NCBI RefSeq assembly: GCF_003334255.1 | Contig: NZ_QOWU01000031.1 | DNA length: 58,190 bases | Origin: Escherichia coli | GTDB taxonomy: Bacteria > Pseudomonadota > Gammaproteobacteria > Enterobacterales > Enterobacteriaceae | Strand: one strand, 5' to 3' | The notes under the pieces: model-generated | What the model saw: the letters and a program-made list of their open reading frames with translations, nothing else | Told to the model about the DNA's origin: nothing | The model's database searches: none | Position numbers and translations under genes: made by a program | Part shown: positions 4,600-16,391 of the stretch, piece by piece | Position numbering within the stretch: the first letter of the stretch is position 1 | Layout: every line of letters starts with the position of its first letter

Positions 4600-4652
4600 T
4601 CAAATCAGCTTGCGCGCTATTTTACGCGCCAACGCGCAAGGAAACTTGATTT

Positions 4653-5579
4653 TTAACTGCGTGGATTGCCGAAAATTTCTAAAAATCCGCTGATTTCCGG
4701 CCTGCGCTGGGTAAACAAGGTCACAATATCTTCTACCGCTTTGCCGCTGCCAAATTTGCGCCATGCCAGACTCAATGGCGAAGGAGGGCGCATCGTTGGG
4801 ATTACCCGGCTGACCAGTTGTTGATTATCGATCATTGACTGGTAAAGCGATTTTGGCAAAAAACCAATGCCAACGCCCGCCAGATGGGCGGCGATTTTCG
4901 TTTCCATATCGGGAACAATAATCTCTTTTTGCCCTGGCAATCGCCAGGCGACGCGTTTGGTTAAGGTGCGGGCGCTGTCTTCAATATTGACCGCCGGAAA
5001 GCGCCGCAACTGCGCTTCTGTTAGCGGCTCTTCAACGTTCGCCAGCGGATGATCCGCCGCCATGACAAAGCGCCATTGCACCGATCCTAAGGGATCAAGA
5101 CTAAAGGTATTTGCCAGCGCCTCAGTTCCCGTGACGCCGATAGCCAGCGAAAAACCTTCGTACAATAGCGAGTCCCAGACGCCCATATAGATTTGTCGGG
5201 AGATGTGAAACTGGGTAAAGGGGTAACGCTCATTCAGCCACGCCAGCAACTGGGCGACGGCCTGGGGGTTGTAGAGCAGGTTGTTGATGACAATATTCAC
5301 CTGGCGTTCCACGGCATCATTCACCTGTTGCAGCTCGCTTGGCATACTTTCCAGCCAGCTCAGCCAGTCTCTGGCCTGGGAAAGTAGATGCTCGCCAGCC
5401 GCTGTCAACGTCACGCTGCGAGTCGTACGGAAAAACAGCGCTACTCCGGTATTCTCTTCCAGAAGTTTAATGCGATAACTGATCGTCGCCGTGGTTTTAC
5501 ATAATCGTTCTGCCGCTTTTGAAAAACTTCCTGTTTCAGCAACCGCAATGAAAGTCCGCAAGGTTTCTGGATCGAACAT
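4653..5579 (-). CDS. allS: LysR-family transcriptional activator of the allantoin regulon
   Basis: 308-aa ORF with an N-terminal LysR HTH ([24 protein letters not shown]). Divergent from allA. Confidence 0.9.
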
Positions 5580-5686
5580 CTTCAGGTATCCCCTTTTAAA
5601 TCTGCAAGTTGCGTGATTTTCTTATCCTCTGATTTATCAGTATTTTTACATGATAACCCTGTTCAATTTGTGTACTAAATCTAGTT

Positions 5687-5703
5687 TTGGAAAAATATTC
5701 CAA
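5687..5703. promoter_or_regulatory. Palindromic operator TTGGAAAAATATTCCAA in the allS-allA divergent intergenic region (AllR-type operator)
   Basis: Near-perfect 17-bp inverted repeat seen directly in the sequence. An almost identical palindrome lies upstream of gcl at 7237-7253. AllR is known to bind such sites. Confidence 0.7.
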
Positions 5704-5808
5704 CTTTTGTATTGATGTTGTTCTCTTAAGGTTTTAGATTGCCTGTTATTGAAACCAAGCTGACCGGTCGGCGGTGGTTGAACGGAATTATGTTACAAGG
5801 ACAAAAAG

Positions 5809-6291
5809 ATGAAACTTCAGGTATTACCGTTAAGTCAGGAAGCCTTTAGTGCTTATGGCGACGTAATCGAAACGCAGCAACGGGATTTTTTCCATATTAA
5901 CAATGGCCTGGTGGAGCGTTACCACGATTTGGCGCTGGTTGAGATTCTTGAGCAAGACCGTACGCTTATCAGCATTAACCGCGCGCAACCGGCGAATCTG
6001 CCGCTGACCATTCACGAACTCGAACGTCATCCGCTGGGTACTCAGGCCTTTATCCCGATGAAAGGTGAGGTGTTTGTGGTGGTCGTGGCGTTAGGTGACG
6101 ACAAACCAGACCTGTCAACGCTGCGGGCGTTTATCACCAACGGCGAACAGGGAGTGAATTACCATCGTAACGTCTGGCATCACCCACTTTTCGCCTGGCA
6201 GCGCGTCACCGATTTTCTGACCATCGATCGCGGCGGCAGTGACAACTGTGATGTTGAAAGTATTCCTGAACAGGAACTCTGTTTTGCGTGA
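5809..6291 (+). CDS. allA: Ureidoglycolate lyase
   Basis: 160-aa ORF; synteny and length match. Confidence 0.9.
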
Positions 6292-6368
6292 CGCCTGCAA
6301 CCGACTTGCATAAGATAAACTAATTGTTCATTGTTTATGCTCACTTGTAGGTCGGAGTTAACGTAGGT

Positions 6369-7184
6369 ATGACGGAAGTTAGACGGCGCGGCAGGCCAGG
6401 ACAGGCGGAGCCTGTGGCACAGAAGGGCGCACAGGCGTTAGAGCGGGGAATTGCGATTCTGCAATATTTGGAAAAAAGTGGGGGAAGTTCGTCGGTTAGC
6501 GATATTTCTCTCAATCTGGATTTGCCGCTCTCCACGACCTTTCGCTTGCTGAAGGTTTTACAGGCAGCGGATTTTGTCTATCAGGACAGTCAATTAGGCT
6601 GGTGGCATATAGGATTAGGTGTCTTTAACGTCGGTGCGGCGTACATCCATAACCGCGATGTCCTCTCCGTCGCCGGGCCGTTTATGCGCCGCCTGATGTT
6701 ACTTTCCGGCGAAACGGTCAATGTCGCGATCCGTAACGGCAATGAAGCGGTATTAATTGGTCAGTTAGAGTGTAAATCGATGGTCAGGATGTGTGCGCCA
6801 CTGGGCAGTCGTCTGCCACTGCATGCTTCCGGTGCGGGCAAAGCGCTGCTTTATCCGCTGGCGGAAGAGGAGTTGATGAGCATCATTCTGCAAACCGGTT
6901 TGCAGCAGTTTACGCCAACTACGCTTGTGGATATGCCCACCTTGCTGAAGGACCTGGAACAAGCGCGTGAACTGGGCTATACCGTAGATAAAGAAGAGCA
7001 TGTTGTAGGTCTGAATTGCATAGCTTCAGCAATTTACGATGATGTCGGTAGTGTTGTTGCCGCTATCTCCATCTCCGGGCCTTCATCAAGACTGACAGAA
7101 GATCGTTTTGTCAGTCAGGGTGAGCTGGTCAGAGACACCGCCCGCGATATCAGCACGGCGTTGGGACTGAAAGCACATCCATAA
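6369..7184 (+). CDS. allR: IclR-family repressor of the allantoin/glyoxylate regulon
   Basis: 271-aa ORF with IclR-type HTH and effector domain; synteny. Confidence 0.9.
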
Positions 7185-7196
7185 TGTCTGTCGCAT

Positions 7197-7221
7197 CCCG
7201 CTCTGCGGAGCGGGTTTTTTT
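7197..7221 (+). terminator. Rho-independent terminator after allR
   Basis: GC-rich hairpin CCCGCTC-TGCG-GAGCGGG followed by a run of 8 T. Confidence 0.7.
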
Positions 7222-7236
7222 GACAAAATTTGAAAG

Positions 7237-7253
7237 TTGGAAAAATTTTCCAA
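7237..7253. promoter_or_regulatory. Perfect palindromic operator TTGGAAAAATTTTCCAA upstream of gcl (AllR-type operator)
   Basis: 17-bp perfect inverted repeat, 20 bp upstream of the gcl start, seen directly. Confidence 0.75.
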
Positions 7254-7273
7254 TAAATAGAGGTAGGAATAAA

Positions 7274-9055
7274 ATGGCAAAAATGAGAGCCGTTGACGCG
7301 GCAATGTATGTGCTGGAGAAAGAAGGTATCACCACCGCCTTCGGTGTTCCGGGAGCTGCAATCAATCCGTTCTACTCAGCGATGCGTAAGCACGGCGGTA
7401 TTCGTCACATTCTGGCGCGTCATGTGGAAGGTGCTTCGCACATGGCGGAAGGTTATACCCGCGCAACGGCAGGAAATATCGGCGTATGTCTGGGGACTTC
7501 CGGTCCTGCGGGCACGGACATGATCACCGCGCTCTATTCCGCTTCTGCTGATTCCATTCCTATTCTGTGCATTACCGGCCAGGCACCGCGCGCCCGTCTG
7601 CATAAAGAAGATTTTCAGGCCGTAGATATTGAAGCAATTGCTAAACCGGTCAGCAAAATGGCGGTTACAGTTCGTGAAGCGGCGCTGGTGCCTCGCGTGC
7701 TGCAACAGGCATTTCACCTGATGCGTTCTGGTCGTCCGGGTCCGGTACTGGTGGATTTACCGTTCGACGTTCAGGTTGCGGAAATCGAGTTTGATCCTGA
7801 CATGTACGAACCGCTGCCGGTCTACAAACCTGCTGCCAGCCGTATGCAGATCGAAAAAGCTGTAGAAATGTTAATCCAGGCCGAACGTCCGGTGATTGTT
7901 GCCGGGGGCGGGGTAATTAATGCTGACGCAGCTGCACTGTTACAACAGTTTGCTGAACTGACCAGCGTTCCGGTGATCCCAACGCTGATGGGCTGGGGCT
8001 GTATCCCGGACGATCATGAACTGATGGCCGGGATGGTGGGTCTGCAAACCGCGCATCGTTACGGTAACGCAACGTTGCTGGCGTCCGACATGGTGTTTGG
8101 TATCGGTAACCGTTTTGCTAACCGTCATACCGGTTCGGTAGAGAAATACACCGAAGGGCGCAAAATCGTTCATATCGATATTGAGCCGACGCAAATTGGT
8201 CGCGTGCTGTGTCCGGATCTCGGCATTGTCTCTGATGCTAAAGCGGCGCTGACACTGCTGGTTGAAGTGGCGCAGGAGATGCAAAAAGCGGGTCGTCTGC
8301 CGTGTCGTAAAGAATGGGTCGCCGACTGCCAGCAGCGCAAACGCACTTTGCTGCGCAAAACCCATTTCGACAACGTGCCGGTGAAACCGCAGCGCGTGTA
8401 TGAAGAGATGAACAAAGCCTTTGGTCGCGATGTTTGCTATGTCACCACCATTGGTCTGTCACAAATCGCTGCGGCACAAATGCTGCATGTCTTTAAAGAC
8501 CGCCACTGGATCAACTGTGGTCAGGCTGGTCCGTTAGGCTGGACGATTCCGGCGGCGCTGGGGGTTTGTGCCGCTGATCCGAAACGCAATGTGGTGGCGA
8601 TTTCTGGCGACTTTGACTTCCAGTTCCTGATTGAAGAGTTAGCCGTTGGCGCGCAGTTCAACATTCCGTACATCCATGTGCTGGTGAATAACGCCTATCT
8701 CGGCCTGATTCGTCAGTCACAACGCGCTTTTGACATGGACTACTGCGTGCAACTCGCTTTCGAGAATATCAACTCCAGTGAAGTGAATGGCTACGGTGTT
8801 GACCACGTAAAAGTAGCGGAAGGTTTAGGTTGTAAAGCTATTCGGGTCTTCAAACCGGAAGATATTGCGCCAGCCTTTGAACAGGCGAAAGCCTTAATGG
8901 CGCAATATCGGGTACCGGTAGTCGTGGAAGTTATTCTCGAGCGTGTGACCAATATTTCGATGGGCAGCGAACTGGATAACGTCATGGAATTTGAAGATAT
9001 CGCCGATAACGCAGCGGACGCACCGACTGAAACCTGCTTCATGCACTATGAATAA
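7274..9055 (+). CDS. gcl: Glyoxylate carboligase (ThDP-dependent)
   Basis: 593 aa from the internal ATG at 7274; the track ORF from 7184 is an upstream in-frame extension. ThDP-enzyme motifs and synteny. Confidence 0.9.
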
Positions 9056-9067
9056 GGGAGATAAATA

Positions 9068-9844
9068 ATGTTACGTTTCTCTGCTAATTTATCGATGTTA
9101 TTTGGAGAATATGATTTTCTCGCCCGTTTTGAGAAAGCTGCGCAGTGTGGTTTTCGCAGCGTTGAATTTATGTTTCCTTATGACTACGACATTGAAGAAT
9201 TAAAACATGTGCTGGCGAGTAATAAACTCGAACATACGCTGCACAATTTACCGGCGGGTGACTGGGCGGCGGGGGAGCGCGGTATTGCCTGTATTCCTGG
9301 CCGTGAAGAAGAGTTTCGGGATGGCGTAGCAGCAGCGATTCGTTATGCCCGTGCGCTGGGTAATAAAAAAATTAACTGTCTGGTCGGTAAAACGCCGGCT
9401 GGTTTCAGCAGTGAACAGATTCACGCAACGCTTGTAGAAAACCTGCGTTATGCCGCGAATATGCTGATGAAAGAAGATATTTTATTACTGATTGAACCTA
9501 TTAACCATTTTGATATTCCTGGTTTCCATCTCACCGGAACTCGGCAGGCGCTGAAATTGATTGATGATGTTGGTTGCTGCAATTTGAAAATTCAGTATGA
9601 CATTTATCATATGCAGCGGATGGAAGGTGAATTAACCAACACCATGACTCAGTGGGCTGATAAAATTGGTCACCTGCAAATTGCCGATAATCCGCATCGC
9701 GGCGAACCGGGAACCGGAGAAATTAATTATGATTATCTCTTTAAGGTAATCGAAAATTCTGACTACAACGGTTGGGTTGGGTGTGAATATAAACCCCAAA
9801 CCACCACGGAAGCCGGTTTACGCTGGATGGATCCGTACCGTTAA
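9068..9844 (+). CDS. hyi: Hydroxypyruvate isomerase
   Basis: 258-aa ORF; synteny (gcl-hyi-glxR). Confidence 0.9.
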   Translation: MLRFSANLSMLFGEYDFLARFEKAAQCGFRSVEFMFPYDYDIEELKHVLASNKLEHTLHNLPAGDWAAGERGIACIPGREEEFRDGVAAAIRYARALGNKKINCLVGKTPAGFSSEQIHATLVENLRYAANMLMKEDILLLIEPINHFDIPGFHLTGTRQALKLIDDVGCCNLKIQYDIYHMQRMEGELTNTMTQWADKIGHLQIADNPHRGEPGTGEINYDYLFKVIENSDYNGWVGCEYKPQTTTEAGLRWMDPYR

Positions 9845-9943
9845 AACGTAACGCTATTCAGACAATGCTTTTTTAGGCCGCTAAGTTGGCAGGGGATCGT
9901 GTTGTCTGAATTCAGGAAAAGCGAAATTTAAAAGAGGTTAATT

Positions 9944-10822
9944 ATGAAACTGGGATTTATTGGCTTAGGCATTATGGGTACACCGATGGCCATTAATCTG
10001 GCGCGTGCCGGTCATCAATTACATGTCACGACCATTGGACCGGTTGCTGATGAATTACTGTCACTGGGTGCCGTCAGTGTTGAAACTGCTCGCCAGGTAA
10101 CGGAAGCATCGGACATCATTTTTATTATGGTGCCGGACACACCTCAGGTTGAAGAAGTTCTGTTCGGTGAAAATGGTTGTACCAAAGCCTCGCTGAAGGG
10201 CAAAACCATTGTTGATATGAGCTCCATTTCCCCGATTGAAACTAAGCGTTTCGCTCGTCAGGTGAATGAACTGGGCGGCGATTATCTCGATGCGCCAGTC
10301 TCCGGCGGTGAAATCGGTGCGCGTGAAGGGACGTTGTCGATTATGGTTGGCGGTGATGAAGCGGTATTTGAACGTGTTAAACCGCTGTTTGAACTGCTCG
10401 GTAAAAATATCACCCTCGTGGGCGGTAACGGCGATGGTCAAACCTGCAAAGTGGCAAATCAGATTATCGTGGCGCTCAATATTGAAGCGGTTTCTGAAGC
10501 CCTGCTATTTGCTTCAAAAGCCGGTGCGGACCCGGTACGTGTGCGCCAGGCGCTGATGGGCGGCTTTGCTTCCTCACGTATTCTGGAAGTTCATGGCGAG
10601 CGTATGATTAAACGCACCTTTAATCCGGGCTTCAAAATCGCTCTGCACCAGAAAGATCTCAACCTGGCACTGCAAAGTGCGAAAGCACTTGCGCTGAACC
10701 TGCCAAACACTGCGACCTGCCAGGAGTTATTTAATACCTGTGCGGCAAACGGTGGCAGCCAGTTGGATCACTCTGCGTTAGTGCAGGCGCTGGAATTAAT
10801 GGCTAACCATAAACTGGCCTGA
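9944..10822 (+). CDS. glxR: Tartronate semialdehyde reductase (NAD-binding beta-hydroxyacid dehydrogenase)
   Basis: 292-aa ORF with N-terminal Rossmann motif GFIGLGIMG; synteny. Confidence 0.9.
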   Translation: MKLGFIGLGIMGTPMAINLARAGHQLHVTTIGPVADELLSLGAVSVETARQVTEASDIIFIMVPDTPQVEEVLFGENGCTKASLKGKTIVDMSSISPIETKRFARQVNELGGDYLDAPVSGGEIGAREGTLSIMVGGDEAVFERVKPLFELLGKNITLVGGNGDGQTCKVANQIIVALNIEAVSEALLFASKAGADPVRVRQALMGGFASSRILEVHGERMIKRTFNPGFKIALHQKDLNLALQSAKALALNLPNTATCQELFNTCAANGGSQLDHSALVQALELMANHKLA

Positions 10823-10990
10823 TACCCGCAATAAAAATGGCCGGTATCAGAAAATGAATCGGCCAGCAATATTAAAAAAGAAAGCAGCCAAAGATGTTGC
10901 TTCAGTATTAAAAATAATATTTTTATTTTATTTGTTCCTCATAGCTAGATTAAAACAACGTTATTCGATACGTGAAATTAAGAGGGATTT

Positions 10991-12445
10991 ATGGAACATC
11001 AGAGAAAACTATTCCAGCAACGCGGCTATAGCGAAGATCTATTGCCGAAAACGCAAAGCCAGCGGACCTGGAAAACATTTAACTATTTTACCTTATGGAT
11101 GGGTTCGGTTCATAACGTTCCCAATTATGTGATGGTCGGCGGCTTTTTTATTCTCGGCTTGTCTACCTTTAGTATTATGCTGGCAATTATCCTCAGCGCC
11201 TTTTTCATTGCCGCGGTAATGGTATTAAACGGTGCTGCGGGCAGTAAATACGGTGTGCCTTTTGCCATGATCCTGCGTGCTTCTTACGGTGTACGTGGTG
11301 CACTGTTTCCCGGATTATTAAGGGGCGGAATTGCCGCCATCATGTGGTTTGGTTTGCAATGTTACGCGGGGTCACTGGCCTGCTTGATTCTGATTGGCAA
11401 AATCTGGCCGGGATTTTTAACTCTCGGTGGTGATTTCACTCTGTTAGGCCTTTCTCTACCGGGCTTAATTACTTTCTTAATCTTCTGGCTGGTCAACGTT
11501 GGTATAGGTTTTGGCGGTGGCAAAGTTTTAAATAAATTCACTGCCATTCTTAACCCGTGCATCTATATCGTTTTCGGCGGTATGGCGATTTGGGCGATTT
11601 CACTGGTCGGGATCGGTCCAATCTTTGACTACATTCCGAGCGGTATTCAGAAAGCAGAAAACGGTGGCTTCCTGTTCCTGGTGGTGATTAACGCGGTAGT
11701 TGCGGTCTGGGCGGCACCGGCGGTGAGCGCATCCGACTTTACGCAAAACGCCCACTCGTTTCGTGAGCAGGCGCTGGGGCAAACGCTGGGTTTAGTTGTG
11801 GCCTATATTCTGTTTGCGGTCGCCGGGGTATGTATTATTGCCGGAGCCAGTATTCACTACGGCGCTGATACCTGGAACGTGCTGGATATTGTTCAGCGTT
11901 GGGACAGCCTGTTCGCCTCGTTCTTTGCGGTACTGGTTATTCTGATGACAACTATCTCCACTAACGCGACCGGTAATATTATTCCAGCCGGTTATCAGAT
12001 TGCCGCCATTGCACCGACAAAACTGACCTATAAAAACGGCGTACTGATTGCCAGTATTATCAGCTTGCTGATCTGCCCGTGGAAATTAATGGAAAATCAG
12101 GACAGCATTTATCTTTTCCTCGATATTATCGGCGGAATGCTTGGTCCGGTAATTGGTGTCATGATGGCGCATTATTTTGTGGTGATGCGCGGACAAATTA
12201 ATCTTGATGAACTGTATACCGCACCTGGCGATTATAAATATTACGATAACGGTTTTAACCTCACTGCGTTTTCAGTAACTCTGGTGGCCGTTATTTTATC
12301 TCTTGGCGGTAAGTTTATTCACTTTATGGAACCGTTATCGCGTGTTTCATGGTTTGTCGGCGTCATCGTCGCCTTTGCGGCCTACGCCTTATTAAAGAAA
12401 CGTACAACAGCAGAAAAAACAGGAGAGCAAAAAACCATAGGTTAA
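10991..12445 (+). CDS. ybbW: Putative allantoin permease (NCS1 family transporter)
   Basis: 484-aa polytopic membrane protein; synteny upstream of allB. Confidence 0.85.
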   Translation: MEHQRKLFQQRGYSEDLLPKTQSQRTWKTFNYFTLWMGSVHNVPNYVMVGGFFILGLSTFSIMLAIILSAFFIAAVMVLNGAAGSKYGVPFAMILRASYGVRGALFPGLLRGGIAAIMWFGLQCYAGSLACLILIGKIWPGFLTLGGDFTLLGLSLPGLITFLIFWLVNVGIGFGGGKVLNKFTAILNPCIYIVFGGMAIWAISLVGIGPIFDYIPSGIQKAENGGFLFLVVINAVVAVWAAPAVSASDFTQNAHSFREQALGQTLGLVVAYILFAVAGVCIIAGASIHYGADTWNVLDIVQRWDSLFASFFAVLVILMTTISTNATGNIIPAGYQIAAIAPTKLTYKNGVLIASIISLLICPWKLMENQDSIYLFLDIIGGMLGPVIGVMMAHYFVVMRGQINLDELYTAPGDYKYYDNGFNLTAFSVTLVAVILSLGGKFIHFMEPLSRVSWFVGVIVAFAAYALLKKRTTAEKTGEQKTIG

Positions 12446-12504
12446 TTAATCCCGATATTGAACATTGAGTTAAAAACCAATCTGTATTTTACAAGGAGTT
12501 TGTT

Positions 12505-13866
12505 ATGTCTTTTGATTTAATCATTAAAAACGGCACCGTTATTTTAGAAAACGAAGCTCGCGTTGTAGATATCGCCGTTAAAGGCGGAAAAATTGCTGCT
12601 ATCGGTCAGGATCTGGGCGATGCAAAAGAAGTTATGGATGCGTCTGGTCTGGTGGTTTCGCCGGGCATGGTTGATGCGCACACCCATATTTCTGAACCGG
12701 GTCGTAGCCACTGGGAAGGTTATGAAACCGGTACTCGCGCAGCGGCAAAAGGTGGTATCACCACCATGATCGAAATGCCGCTCAACCAGCTGCCTGCAAC
12801 GGTTGACCGCGCTTCAATTGAACTGAAGTTCGATGCCGCTAAAGGCAAGCTGACTATTGATGCGGCACAACTCGGTGGCCTGGTGTCTTACAACATCGAC
12901 CGTCTGCATGAGCTGGATGAAGTGGGCGTTGTCGGCTTCAAATGCTTCGTTGCGACCTGTGGCGATCGCGGTATCGACAACGACTTCCGTGATGTAAACG
13001 ACTGGCAGTTCTTCAAAGGTGCGCAGAAGCTGGGCGAACTGGGTCAGCCGGTGCTGGTGCACTGCGAAAACGCGCTGATTTGTGACGAACTGGGCGAAGA
13101 AGCGAAGCGTGAAGGTCGCGTAACCGCTCATGACTATGTGGCTTCGCGTCCGGTATTTACCGAAGTGGAAGCAATTCGCCGCGTACTGTATCTGGCGAAA
13201 GTTGCTGGTTGCCGTCTGCACGTTTGCCACGTCAGCAGCCCGGAAGGTGTTGAGGAAGTGACTCGTGCACGTCAGGAAGGTCAGGACGTTACTTGTGAAT
13301 CCTGCCCGCATTACTTTGTACTGGATACCGATCAGTTCGAAGAAATCGGTACTCTGGCGAAGTGTTCACCGCCGATCCGCGATCTGGAAAACCAGAAAGG
13401 CATGTGGGAAAAACTGTTTAACGGTGAAATCGACTGCCTGGTTTCCGACCACTCTCCATGCCCGCCGGAAATGAAAGCCGGTAACATCATGAAAGCATGG
13501 GGCGGTATCGCCGGTCTGCAAAGCTGCATGGACGTGATGTTCGATGAAGCGGTACAGAAACGCGGTATGTCTCTGCCAATGTTCGGCAAATTAATGGCGA
13601 CTAACGCAGCAGATATTTTCGGTCTGCAGCAAAAAGGCCGTATCGCCCCAGGAAAAGATGCCGACTTCGTCTTCATTCAGCCGAATAGCAGCTATGTTCT
13701 TACCAATGACGATCTGGAATATCGCCACAAAGTCAGCCCGTATGTTGGCCGTACCATTGGCGCGCGTATCACGAAAACCATCTTACGTGGTGATGTGATT
13801 TACGACATTGAACAGGGCTTCCCTGTTGCGCCGAAAGGTCAATTTATCCTTAAACATCAGCAGTAA
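12505..13866 (+). CDS. allB: Allantoinase (cyclic amidohydrolase)
   Basis: 453-aa ORF with metal-binding DAHTH motif; synteny. Confidence 0.9.
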
Positions 13867-13916
13867 TCTGGCCCCTGCAATGCCCGTCCTTGCGGCGGGC
13901 ATTCTCCGGTTAAGGT

Positions 13917-15224
13917 GTGTTTATGTTCAATTTTGCAGTCAGCCGCGAAAGCCTGTTATCAGGATTTCAGTGGTTTTTCTTTATTTTTTGCAACACGGTT
14001 GTGGTTCCTCCTACGCTACTTTCTGCTTTTCAGTTGCCGCAAAGTAGCCTGCTTACGCTCACGCAATATGCTTTTCTTGCTACCGCACTGGCCTGCTTCG
14101 CTCAGGCGTTTTGCGGTCATCGTCGCGCTATTATGGAAGGGCCAGGTGGCCTGTGGTGGGGAACCATCCTTACTATCACCCTTGGTGAAGCATCGCGCGG
14201 GACACCGATCAACGATATCGCCACCAGCCTGGCAGTGGGGATTGCACTCTCCGGCGTGCTGACGATGTTGATTGGTTTTAGCGGATTAGGCCATCGCCTG
14301 GCACGGTTATTTACGCCGTCGGTGATGGTCTTGTTTATGTTGATGCTGGGCGCGCAGCTGACCACTATCTTTTTCAAAGGTATGCTCGGGCTGCCGTTTG
14401 GCATAGCCGACCCGAATTTTAAAATTCAGTTACCGCCGTTCGCGCTCTCGGTGGCGGTGATGTGCCTGGTACTGGCGATGATTATCTTCCTGCCGCAACG
14501 TTTTGCCCGTTATGGCCTGCTGGTCGGCACCATAACCGGCTGGTTGTTGTGGTACTTTTGCTTTCCTTCTTCGCACTCGCTCTCCGGTGAGTTGCACTGG
14601 CAGTGGTTCCCGCTCGGCAGTGGCGGTGCTTTGTCGCCGGGAATTATTCTGACGGCGGTGATTACAGGTCTGGTAAATATCAGCAATACCTACGGTGCGA
14701 TTCGGGGCACGGATGTTTTTTATCCGCAGCAGGGCGCAGGGAATACGCGTTATCGTCGTAGCTTTGTGGCGACCGGATTTATGACGCTGATAACCGTACC
14801 GCTGGCGGTAATTCCATTTTCACCGTTTGTTTCATCCATTGGTTTATTAACCCAGACTGGCGATTACACGCGGCGTTCGTTTATTTATGGCAGCGTTATT
14901 TGCCTGCTGGTGGCGCTGGTTCCTGCACTCACGCGACTGTTTTGCAGTATCCCTTTACCCGTGAGTAGTGCGGTCATGCTGGTTTCTTATCTGCCTTTAC
15001 TCTTTTCCGCGCTGGTGTTTAGCCAGCAAATAACGTTTACCGCTCGCAATATTTATCGACTCGCATTGCCGTTATTTGTCGGCATATTTTTAATGGCATT
15101 ACCGCCTGTGTATCTGCAAGACCTTCCATTAACGCTTCGTCCTCTGCTCAGTAACGGCTTATTGGTCGGGATTTTACTGGCTGTTCTTATGGATAACCTT
15201 ATTCCGTGGGAACGCATCGAATAA
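13917..15224 (+). CDS. ybbY: Putative purine/nucleobase permease (NCS2-like membrane protein); start may be 13923
   Basis: 435-aa polytopic membrane ORF; synteny. Confidence 0.8.
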   Translation: MFMFNFAVSRESLLSGFQWFFFIFCNTVVVPPTLLSAFQLPQSSLLTLTQYAFLATALACFAQAFCGHRRAIMEGPGGLWWGTILTITLGEASRGTPINDIATSLAVGIALSGVLTMLIGFSGLGHRLARLFTPSVMVLFMLMLGAQLTTIFFKGMLGLPFGIADPNFKIQLPPFALSVAVMCLVLAMIIFLPQRFARYGLLVGTITGWLLWYFCFPSSHSLSGELHWQWFPLGSGGALSPGIILTAVITGLVNISNTYGAIRGTDVFYPQQGAGNTRYRRSFVATGFMTLITVPLAVIPFSPFVSSIGLLTQTGDYTRRSFIYGSVICLLVALVPALTRLFCSIPLPVSSAVMLVSYLPLLFSALVFSQQITFTARNIYRLALPLFVGIFLMALPPVYLQDLPLTLRPLLSNGLLVGILLAVLMDNLIPWERIE

Positions 15225-15245
15225 TTTGTTGAAAAAGGATTGATA

Positions 15246-16391
15246 ATGAAGATTGTCATTGCGCCAGACTCTTTTAAAGAGAGCTTAAGTGCAGAAAAAT
15301 GTTGTCAGGCAATTAAAGCCGGGTTTTCGACCCTCTTTCCCGATGCGAACTATATCTGTTTGCCGATAGCGGATGGCGGCGAAGGGACGGTGGATGCGAT
15401 GGTCGCCGCGACGGGCGGCAACATCGTGACGCTTGAAGTCTGCGGGCCGATGGGCGAAAAAGTGAATGCTTTTTATGGCCTTACCGGCGACGGGAAAACG
15501 GCGGTGATTGAGATGGCGGCAGCAAGTGTCCTGATGCTGGTCGCGCCTGAAAAGCGTAATCCGTTGCTGGCCTCCAGTTTTGGTACGGGGGAGTTAATTC
15601 GTCATGCGCTGGATAACGACATTCGCCATATTATTCTCGGCATTGGCGGCAGTGCGACGGTCGACGGCGGTATGGGCATGGCGCAGGCGCTCGGTGTGCG
15701 TTTCCTTGATGCCGACGGTCAGGCGCTGGCGGCAAACGGTGGTAATTTAGCGCGCGTGGCAAGCATTGAGATGGATGAATGCGATCCGCGTCTGGCGAAT
15801 TGCCATATTGAAGTAGCATGTGACGTTGATAACCCGCTGGTAGGGGCACGCGGCGCGGCGGCGGTGTTTGGCCCGCAAAAAGGGGCAACGCCGGAGATGG
15901 TCGAAGAACTTGAACAGGGGCTGCAAAATTACGCCCGTGTTTTACAACAGCAAACTGAAATTAATGTCTGCCAGATGGCGGGCGGCGGCGCTGCGGGCGG
16001 TATGGGTATTGCGGCGGCGGTATTTCTCAATGCGGATATTAAACCGGGCATTGAAATTGTGTTGAATGCGGTCCATCTTGCGCAGGCAGTGCAGGGCGCA
16101 GCACTGGTGATTACCGGGGAAGGGCGCATCGACTCGCAAACGGCAGGCGGTAAAGCGCCGCTGGGTGTGGCGTCGGTGGCGAAGCAGTTTAATGTACCGG
16201 TGATTGGGATTGCTGGCGTATTGGGTGATGGCGTGGAAGTGGTGCACCAGTACGGCATTGACGCGGTATTCAGCATTTTGCCTCGTCTGGCACCTTTAGC
16301 CGAAGTGCTCGCCAGCGGTGAAACCAATCTCTTCAACAGCGCGCGAAATATTGCCTGCGCCATTAAAATAGGTCAGGGAATTAAAAACTAA
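15246..16391 (+). CDS. glxK: Glycerate 2-kinase
   Basis: 381 aa from the Met at 15246 ([11 protein letters not shown]...); glycerate kinase family; synteny. Confidence 0.9.

Follow-up and report, generated by a model that had tools for sequence, protein, structure and literature searches.

The closest described system is the allantoin regulon of Escherichia coli K-12, and the AllR operators considered here are already known as a textbook feature of E. coli. In work from 2002, Rintoul reportedly obtained gel shifts and footprints of AllR, which glyoxylate abolished, on precisely the two regions in question, and Walker in 2006 is said to have found that AllR works as a tetramer, a dimer of dimers, in which glyoxylate causes a conformational change without dissociating the tetramer. 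According to the literature, the targets of AllR include both the allS-allA control region and the promoter of gcl, glyoxylate lowers this binding, and allantoin acts as a corepressor (PMC12535856, PMC11323563). The E. coli AllR motif has been given as KTTGGAAWAWTWTTCCAAC (Suvorova and Gelfand 2021, PMC8222616, citing Rintoul et al. 2002). Another study names AAATCTAGTTTTGGAAAAATATTCCAACTTTTGTATT as the "AllR recognition site" and describes an AllR-repressed lux reporter made from an 82-bp gclP fragment (MG1655; PMC13300388). A ChIP-seq compendium describes AllR as highly specific, having a single strong site or a few of them.

Two further described systems invite comparison. The IclR box, TGGAAATNATTTCCA, found at the aceBAK and iclR promoters, has in common with the sites described below its TGGAAA/TTTCCA arms, its palindromic architecture, a paralogous repressor, and glyoxylate as the effector. 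It differs in the pair flanking the centre, which is A..T here and T..A there, as well as in its target genes and cognate regulator. In the IclR family more generally, control of divergent genes by a single operator likewise involves an A/T-rich palindrome in the divergent region by the regulator's gene cluster (Suvorova and Gelfand 2021). Tandem sites with centres 18-22 bp apart have also been put forward for many regulators of this family, and over half of the IclR orthologous groups are reported to have tandem sites (Suvorova and Gelfand, PMC8222616); in contrast to that general pattern, no clear second site at 18-22 bp was found at the locus analyzed here.

The locus lies in a 58,190-bp stretch of E. 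coli DNA, all of which was analyzed and which we refer to as the window. Of 5,426 complete E. coli genomes, 5,405 contain positions 4600-7400, and strain G1/2 is 100% identical over this stretch. Genes were named from the RefSeq annotation of genomes 99.8-100% identical over this segment and from NCBIfam equivalog models scoring above their curated cut-offs. On the minus strand, allS (4653-5579) encodes the LysR-type activator of allD, as indicated by the AllS equivalog NF007501 (636 bits), the annotation, and the literature. The plus strand carries allA (5809-6291; ureidoglycolate lyase; NF002948, 365 bits, and annotation), allR (6369-7184), and gcl (7274-9055; TIGR01504, 1283 bits). The last of these is the first gene of the gcl-hyi-glxR-allW-allB-ybbY-glxK operon (7274-16391, plus strand), for which the gene order was taken from the RefSeq annotation and the extent, gcl to glxK, has been published (PMC12535856). 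On the 3′ side of glxK follow allE-allC-allD on the minus strand and then fdrA-ylbE-ylbF-ybcF on the plus strand. The allR gene is intact and encodes an IclR-family repressor of 271 amino acids that matches the NCBIfam AllR equivalog NF007548 over its full length (619 bits against a cut-off of 406 bits), matches PDB 1TF1 with its C-terminal domain (E = 2e-110), and shows 100% identity to AllR from a K-12-type genome. The gene is followed on the same strand by an intrinsic terminator at 7197-7221, with a 7-bp GC-rich stem (7197-7214) and a T-run to 7221, and both stem and T-run are kept in Citrobacter.

Within this segment, a preliminary description of the DNA had pointed out two near-identical 17-bp palindromes, at the allS-allA and gcl promoters. 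Both were recovered, and the names given there to allS, allA, and gcl agree with the RefSeq annotation and the NCBIfam equivalog models. Operator 1, TTGGAAAAATATTCCAA (5687-5703, unstranded), sits nearly in the middle of the 229-bp divergent allS-allA intergenic region, its centre lying 116 bp away from the start codon of allS and 114 bp from that of allA. Operator 2, TTGGAAAAATTTTCCAA (7237-7253, unstranded), lies 1550 bp further on, just downstream of the allR terminator and 20 bp upstream of the gcl ATG, and it ends 6 bp before the gcl Shine-Dalgarno sequence GAGG (7260). The preliminary description had also stated that the two are identical apart from the central base. They do differ by a single base, but it is position 11 of 17 (A in operator 1, T in operator 2), two bases off the centre, which is position 9. 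Operator 2 is a perfect 17-bp palindrome with a central A. Operator 1 pairs at 7 of its 8 symmetric arm positions and consists of perfect 6-bp arms, TTGGAA and TTCCAA, around a 5-bp A/T spacer. The degenerate 17-bp pattern has two exact matches in the window, compared with none in each of 100 dinucleotide-preserving shuffles, such that none would be expected by chance. No other site in the whole 58,190-bp window comes within fewer than five mismatches of the palindrome, nor does a further TGGAA-N5-9-TTCCA core occur elsewhere in it; matches with five mismatches number 13.

These two palindromes are almost certainly the operators of AllR, which is encoded between them, and through them AllR would shut off both the gcl operon and the divergent allS and allA genes. 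Operator 1 matches the AllR motif KTTGGAAWAWTWTTCCAAC at 19 of 19 positions and operator 2 at 18 of 19, the one mismatch being the last flanking base (T instead of C). Operator 1 with its flanks (5677-5713) is letter-for-letter equal to the recognition site AAATCTAGTTTTGGAAAAATATTCCAACTTTTGTATT of PMC13300388, and the primers of the gclP fragment used in the same study delimit 7185-7266, a segment that contains operator 2. The earlier suggestion that the palindromes fit the AllR operator is thus borne out by the published motif and, for operator 1, by the published recognition site. Compared with the K-12 AllR operators (Rintoul 2002, Walker 2006, Hasegawa 2008), the 17-bp sequences, the flanking genes, and the AllR protein are the same: a K-12-type genome carries both operators in identical form, and the only differences that we noted are rare single-nucleotide variants in the flanks of this strain (T at 5673 and T at 5603). 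From this identity to the characterized K-12 system we infer that the regulon wiring is probably intact in this strain, as the preliminary description had proposed. The sequences, positions, statistics, motif match, intact allR gene, and conservation come from the present analysis, while AllR binding and the effector responses are taken from the K-12 literature, in which they are reported for DNA with the same sequence.

How many AllR sites the gcl promoter carries is a separate matter. In one reading, an AllR tetramer would occupy tandem sites at gcl, namely the strong palindrome and a degenerate site immediately upstream, TTGACAAAATTTGAAAG (7219-7236). A five-mismatch match at 7219-7235 does abut operator 2, with its centre about 17-18 bp upstream, and clustered predicted AllR sites are mentioned in the BoltzNet paper. 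Against this, matches of that quality occur 13 times in the window, operator 1 has no comparable second site in its flanks, and 7219-7236 is not conserved among E. coli, Citrobacter, and Providencia, except for the T-run of the terminator. We consider the tandem arrangement improbable and, given the lack of conservation, dropped 7219-7236 as a second AllR site.

Another reading is that the sites are bound mainly, or also, by IclR, a paralogue that senses glyoxylate; the regulator of the glyoxylate shunt would then be coupled to gcl and all expression. The outer arms are those of the IclR box TGGAAATNATTTCCA, whose specified positions are matched at 12 of 14 by the 15-bp core of the gcl site and at 11 of 14 by that of the allS-allA site (13/15 and 12/15, respectively, when the N position is counted). 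AllR itself also matches the IclR equivalog model, at 248 bits, which is below the 380-bit cut-off, and the ligand-binding residues of the two proteins are nearly identical according to the literature. The mismatches to the IclR box are, however, the symmetric pair flanking the centre, which are the very positions that separate the two motifs, and it is at this pair that identity with TGGAAATNATTTCCA fails. Moreover, the literature assigns both sites to AllR, allR lies between them, and the pairing of sites and regulator is kept across genera. We found no report in the literature of IclR binding at gcl or allS-allA, and we regard a role for IclR at these sites as very unlikely compared with binding by AllR.

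Conservation of the AllR sites was assessed by scanning a collection of species-representative genomes (298 Gb) with the pattern TTGGAAWAWTWTTCCAA, which specifies 14 bases and three W positions. The scan returned at least 120 loci, and E. coli itself has no entry among the matches listed. Five of these loci fall in an all cluster: Citrobacter werkmanii, Citrobacter sp. FP75, and Citrobacter sp. R56 (L016, L047, and L072), Superficieibacter electus (L023), and a metagenome-assembled genome (MAG) of Providencia (L080). The motif stands between allS and allA in all five and directly upstream of gcl in each of the four that reach gcl, namely those of the three Citrobacter and of Providencia; in these four the two sites are 1548-1647 bp apart, compared with 1550 bp in the window. 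Because the loci were found through the motif itself, the presence of at least one conserved site in each cross-genus locus is partly by construction. This does not apply to the second site, which co-occurs at the orthologous place. The sample covers species whose operators match the motif and not those in which the operators have diverged. The arms TTGGAA and TTCCAA of operator 1 are unchanged in four other genomes from three genera. The allS-allA-allR-gcl-hyi-glxR arrangement extends to Providencia, where exact AllR boxes are found at 5426-5442 and 7073-7089 of the MAG locus and where the operator also keeps its spacing to the Shine-Dalgarno sequence of gcl. When the two intergenic regions are aligned, the operator forms the longest invariant block in each, even against Providencia, whose AllR and AllS are 65% and 52% identical, respectively, to those of E. 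coli and in which the rest of the spacer cannot be aligned.

The other 115 loci listed are single matches in unrelated, mostly AT-rich genomes. For 114 of them, no match to six all/gcl proteins was found, and the remaining one (L029) has a weak GlxR-like match alone (28% identical). Chance matches to a pattern of this type are expected to number on the order of 100 in 298 Gb, and the 115 single matches were treated as chance background. The idea that the E. coli palindromes are themselves AT-rich repeats without a protein partner, either chance inverted repeats such as arise in those many unrelated AT-rich genomes or structural DNA or RNA hairpins of a terminator-like kind, draws on the folding of the single strands into short hairpins (-4.1 and -4.7 kcal/mol; z = -1.9 and -2.4), but its probability is negligible. 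The hairpins are weak, with AT-rich stems of 6-7 bp, and the terminator search picked out neither of them; the true terminator of allR is formed by a separate GC-rich stem at 7197-7214. The chance expectation in the window is zero exact matches, and the pair of sites, 1550 bp apart here, is found again at the orthologous positions of four other genomes, whereas the matches in unrelated genomes stand singly and have no all genes nearby.

Variation of the AllR operators within the species was examined in five E. coli lineages (K-12-type, ATCC 25922, O157:H7, O169:H41, and MB06102). All 17 bp of operator 1 are invariant among the five, while its flanks vary. Operator 2 varies at its central base (7245) alone, which is A in the window and in K-12 and T in O157:H7, ATCC 25922, O169:H41, and MB06102; the T is linked with an A-to-T change at 7255, 2 bp past the 3′ end of the operator. 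The A and T forms are both perfect palindromes and are reverse complements of each other, which fits a symmetric AllR dimer that does not read the centre base. The operators vary at positions 9 and 11, to which symmetry adds position 7, and it is precisely these that the published motif gives as W. When the exact 60-mer at the gcl operator was searched by megablast against the 5,426 complete E. coli genomes, at least 1,985 genomes carried the window type and at least 1,992 the O157 type, these counts being lower bounds because of the short query and low-complexity filtering.

The two flanking variants of this strain lie outside operator 1, on the allS side. Position 5673, 14 bp from the operator, is T here and G in the five E. 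coli lineages, Citrobacter, and Superficieibacter; position 5603 is T here and C in the five other E. coli lineages. By megablast, with the same reading as a lower bound, the exact 60-mer at 5665-5724 is present in at least 8 of the 5,426 complete genomes. A speculative suggestion, to which we give little credence, is that cis-variation near the operators, comprising the A/T centre at gcl with the 7255 change and the G-to-T change at 5673, tunes the regulon differently between lineages. If this were true, the variants could alter AllR affinity through "accessory" bases, or the strength of the allS or gcl promoter. A different kind of variation was seen in E. coli O169:H41 Res13-Lact-PER13-34 (L125), in which allS (1342-1915 of that locus) is annotated as a frameshifted pseudogene. 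With allR and the two operators intact, this strain would be a natural case in which the AllS arm of the regulon has been lost.

Some features elsewhere in the window were recorded alongside. Compared with E. coli G1/2, the window shows four mismatches in 31 kb, and at about window position 31316 it is without a 775-bp IS1A segment present in G1/2. At this point, between folD and sfmD, the window has no sfmA or sfmC and no 5′ end of sfmD. The region upstream of folD is joined here to the inside of sfmD, and this IS-less junction is contiguous in none of the 5,426 complete genomes; it may reflect an IS1-mediated deletion with the IS copy lost or collapsed in this assembly. A tRNA-Arg(tct) gene (36254-36330) is followed directly by envY, ybcH, nfrA, and nfrB. 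In K-12, this tRNA gene is the site of the DLP12 prophage, which the window appears to lack. The rhsD/RHS-remnant region at the left end contains two copies of a segment of about 220 bp (143-363 and 1339-1559), 86% identical to each other.

Taken with the K-12 literature, the positions of the two AllR operators suggest how repression would work. The N-terminal helix-turn-helix domains of AllR would bind each inverted repeat, TTGGAA-N5-TTCCAA. At gcl, the operator lies between a candidate -35 hexamer and the ribosome-binding site, where bound AllR would occlude RNA polymerase and keep gcl-hyi-glxR-allW-allB-ybbY-glxK off. At allS-allA, the one central operator would repress both divergent promoters. 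Glyoxylate would bind the C-terminal domain of AllR and release the protein from DNA, whereupon the genes would be induced; allantoin is reported to strengthen repression. Once derepressed, AllS would activate allD, and according to a 2025 report it activates allF as well.

The promoters themselves were placed with less certainty. The gcl promoter has to fit between the terminator of allR and the ribosome-binding site, within about 7215-7258, and the 17 bp of operator 2 lie entirely within this interval. A candidate -35 hexamer, TTGACA, can be read at 7220-7225 on the plus strand; a spacer of 17-18 bp puts the putative -10 hexamer at about 7243-7249, inside operator 2, and bound AllR would therefore block RNA polymerase. 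A candidate allA promoter was likewise read at 5712-5740 on the plus strand, with a -35 hexamer TTGATG (5712-5717), a 17-bp spacer, and a -10 hexamer TAGATT (5735-5740). It starts 9 bp downstream of operator 1 and matches the consensus at 8 of 12 positions, which is below the threshold of the scanner; both of its hexamers fall in conserved blocks that E. coli shares with Citrobacter and Superficieibacter. Because a consensus promoter scan gave no canonical sigma-70 promoter overlapping either operator, we infer the occlusion geometry, including the exact overlap of the operator with the -10 and -35 hexamers, from these candidates. The sole promoter-like site returned by the scan overlaps the gcl ATG and cannot serve gcl, and the allS promoter could not be placed from sequence alone.

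The strain thus very probably carries the standard AllR/glyoxylate switch of allantoin and glyoxylate catabolism. The result is useful for checking annotation and, in the spotting of motifs, as a positive control, and it goes no further than what has been in print on E. coli K-12 since 2002. Two descriptive points are mildly new: the operator pair is kept as far out as Providencia, and E. coli genomes are balanced between A and T at the centre of the gcl operator.
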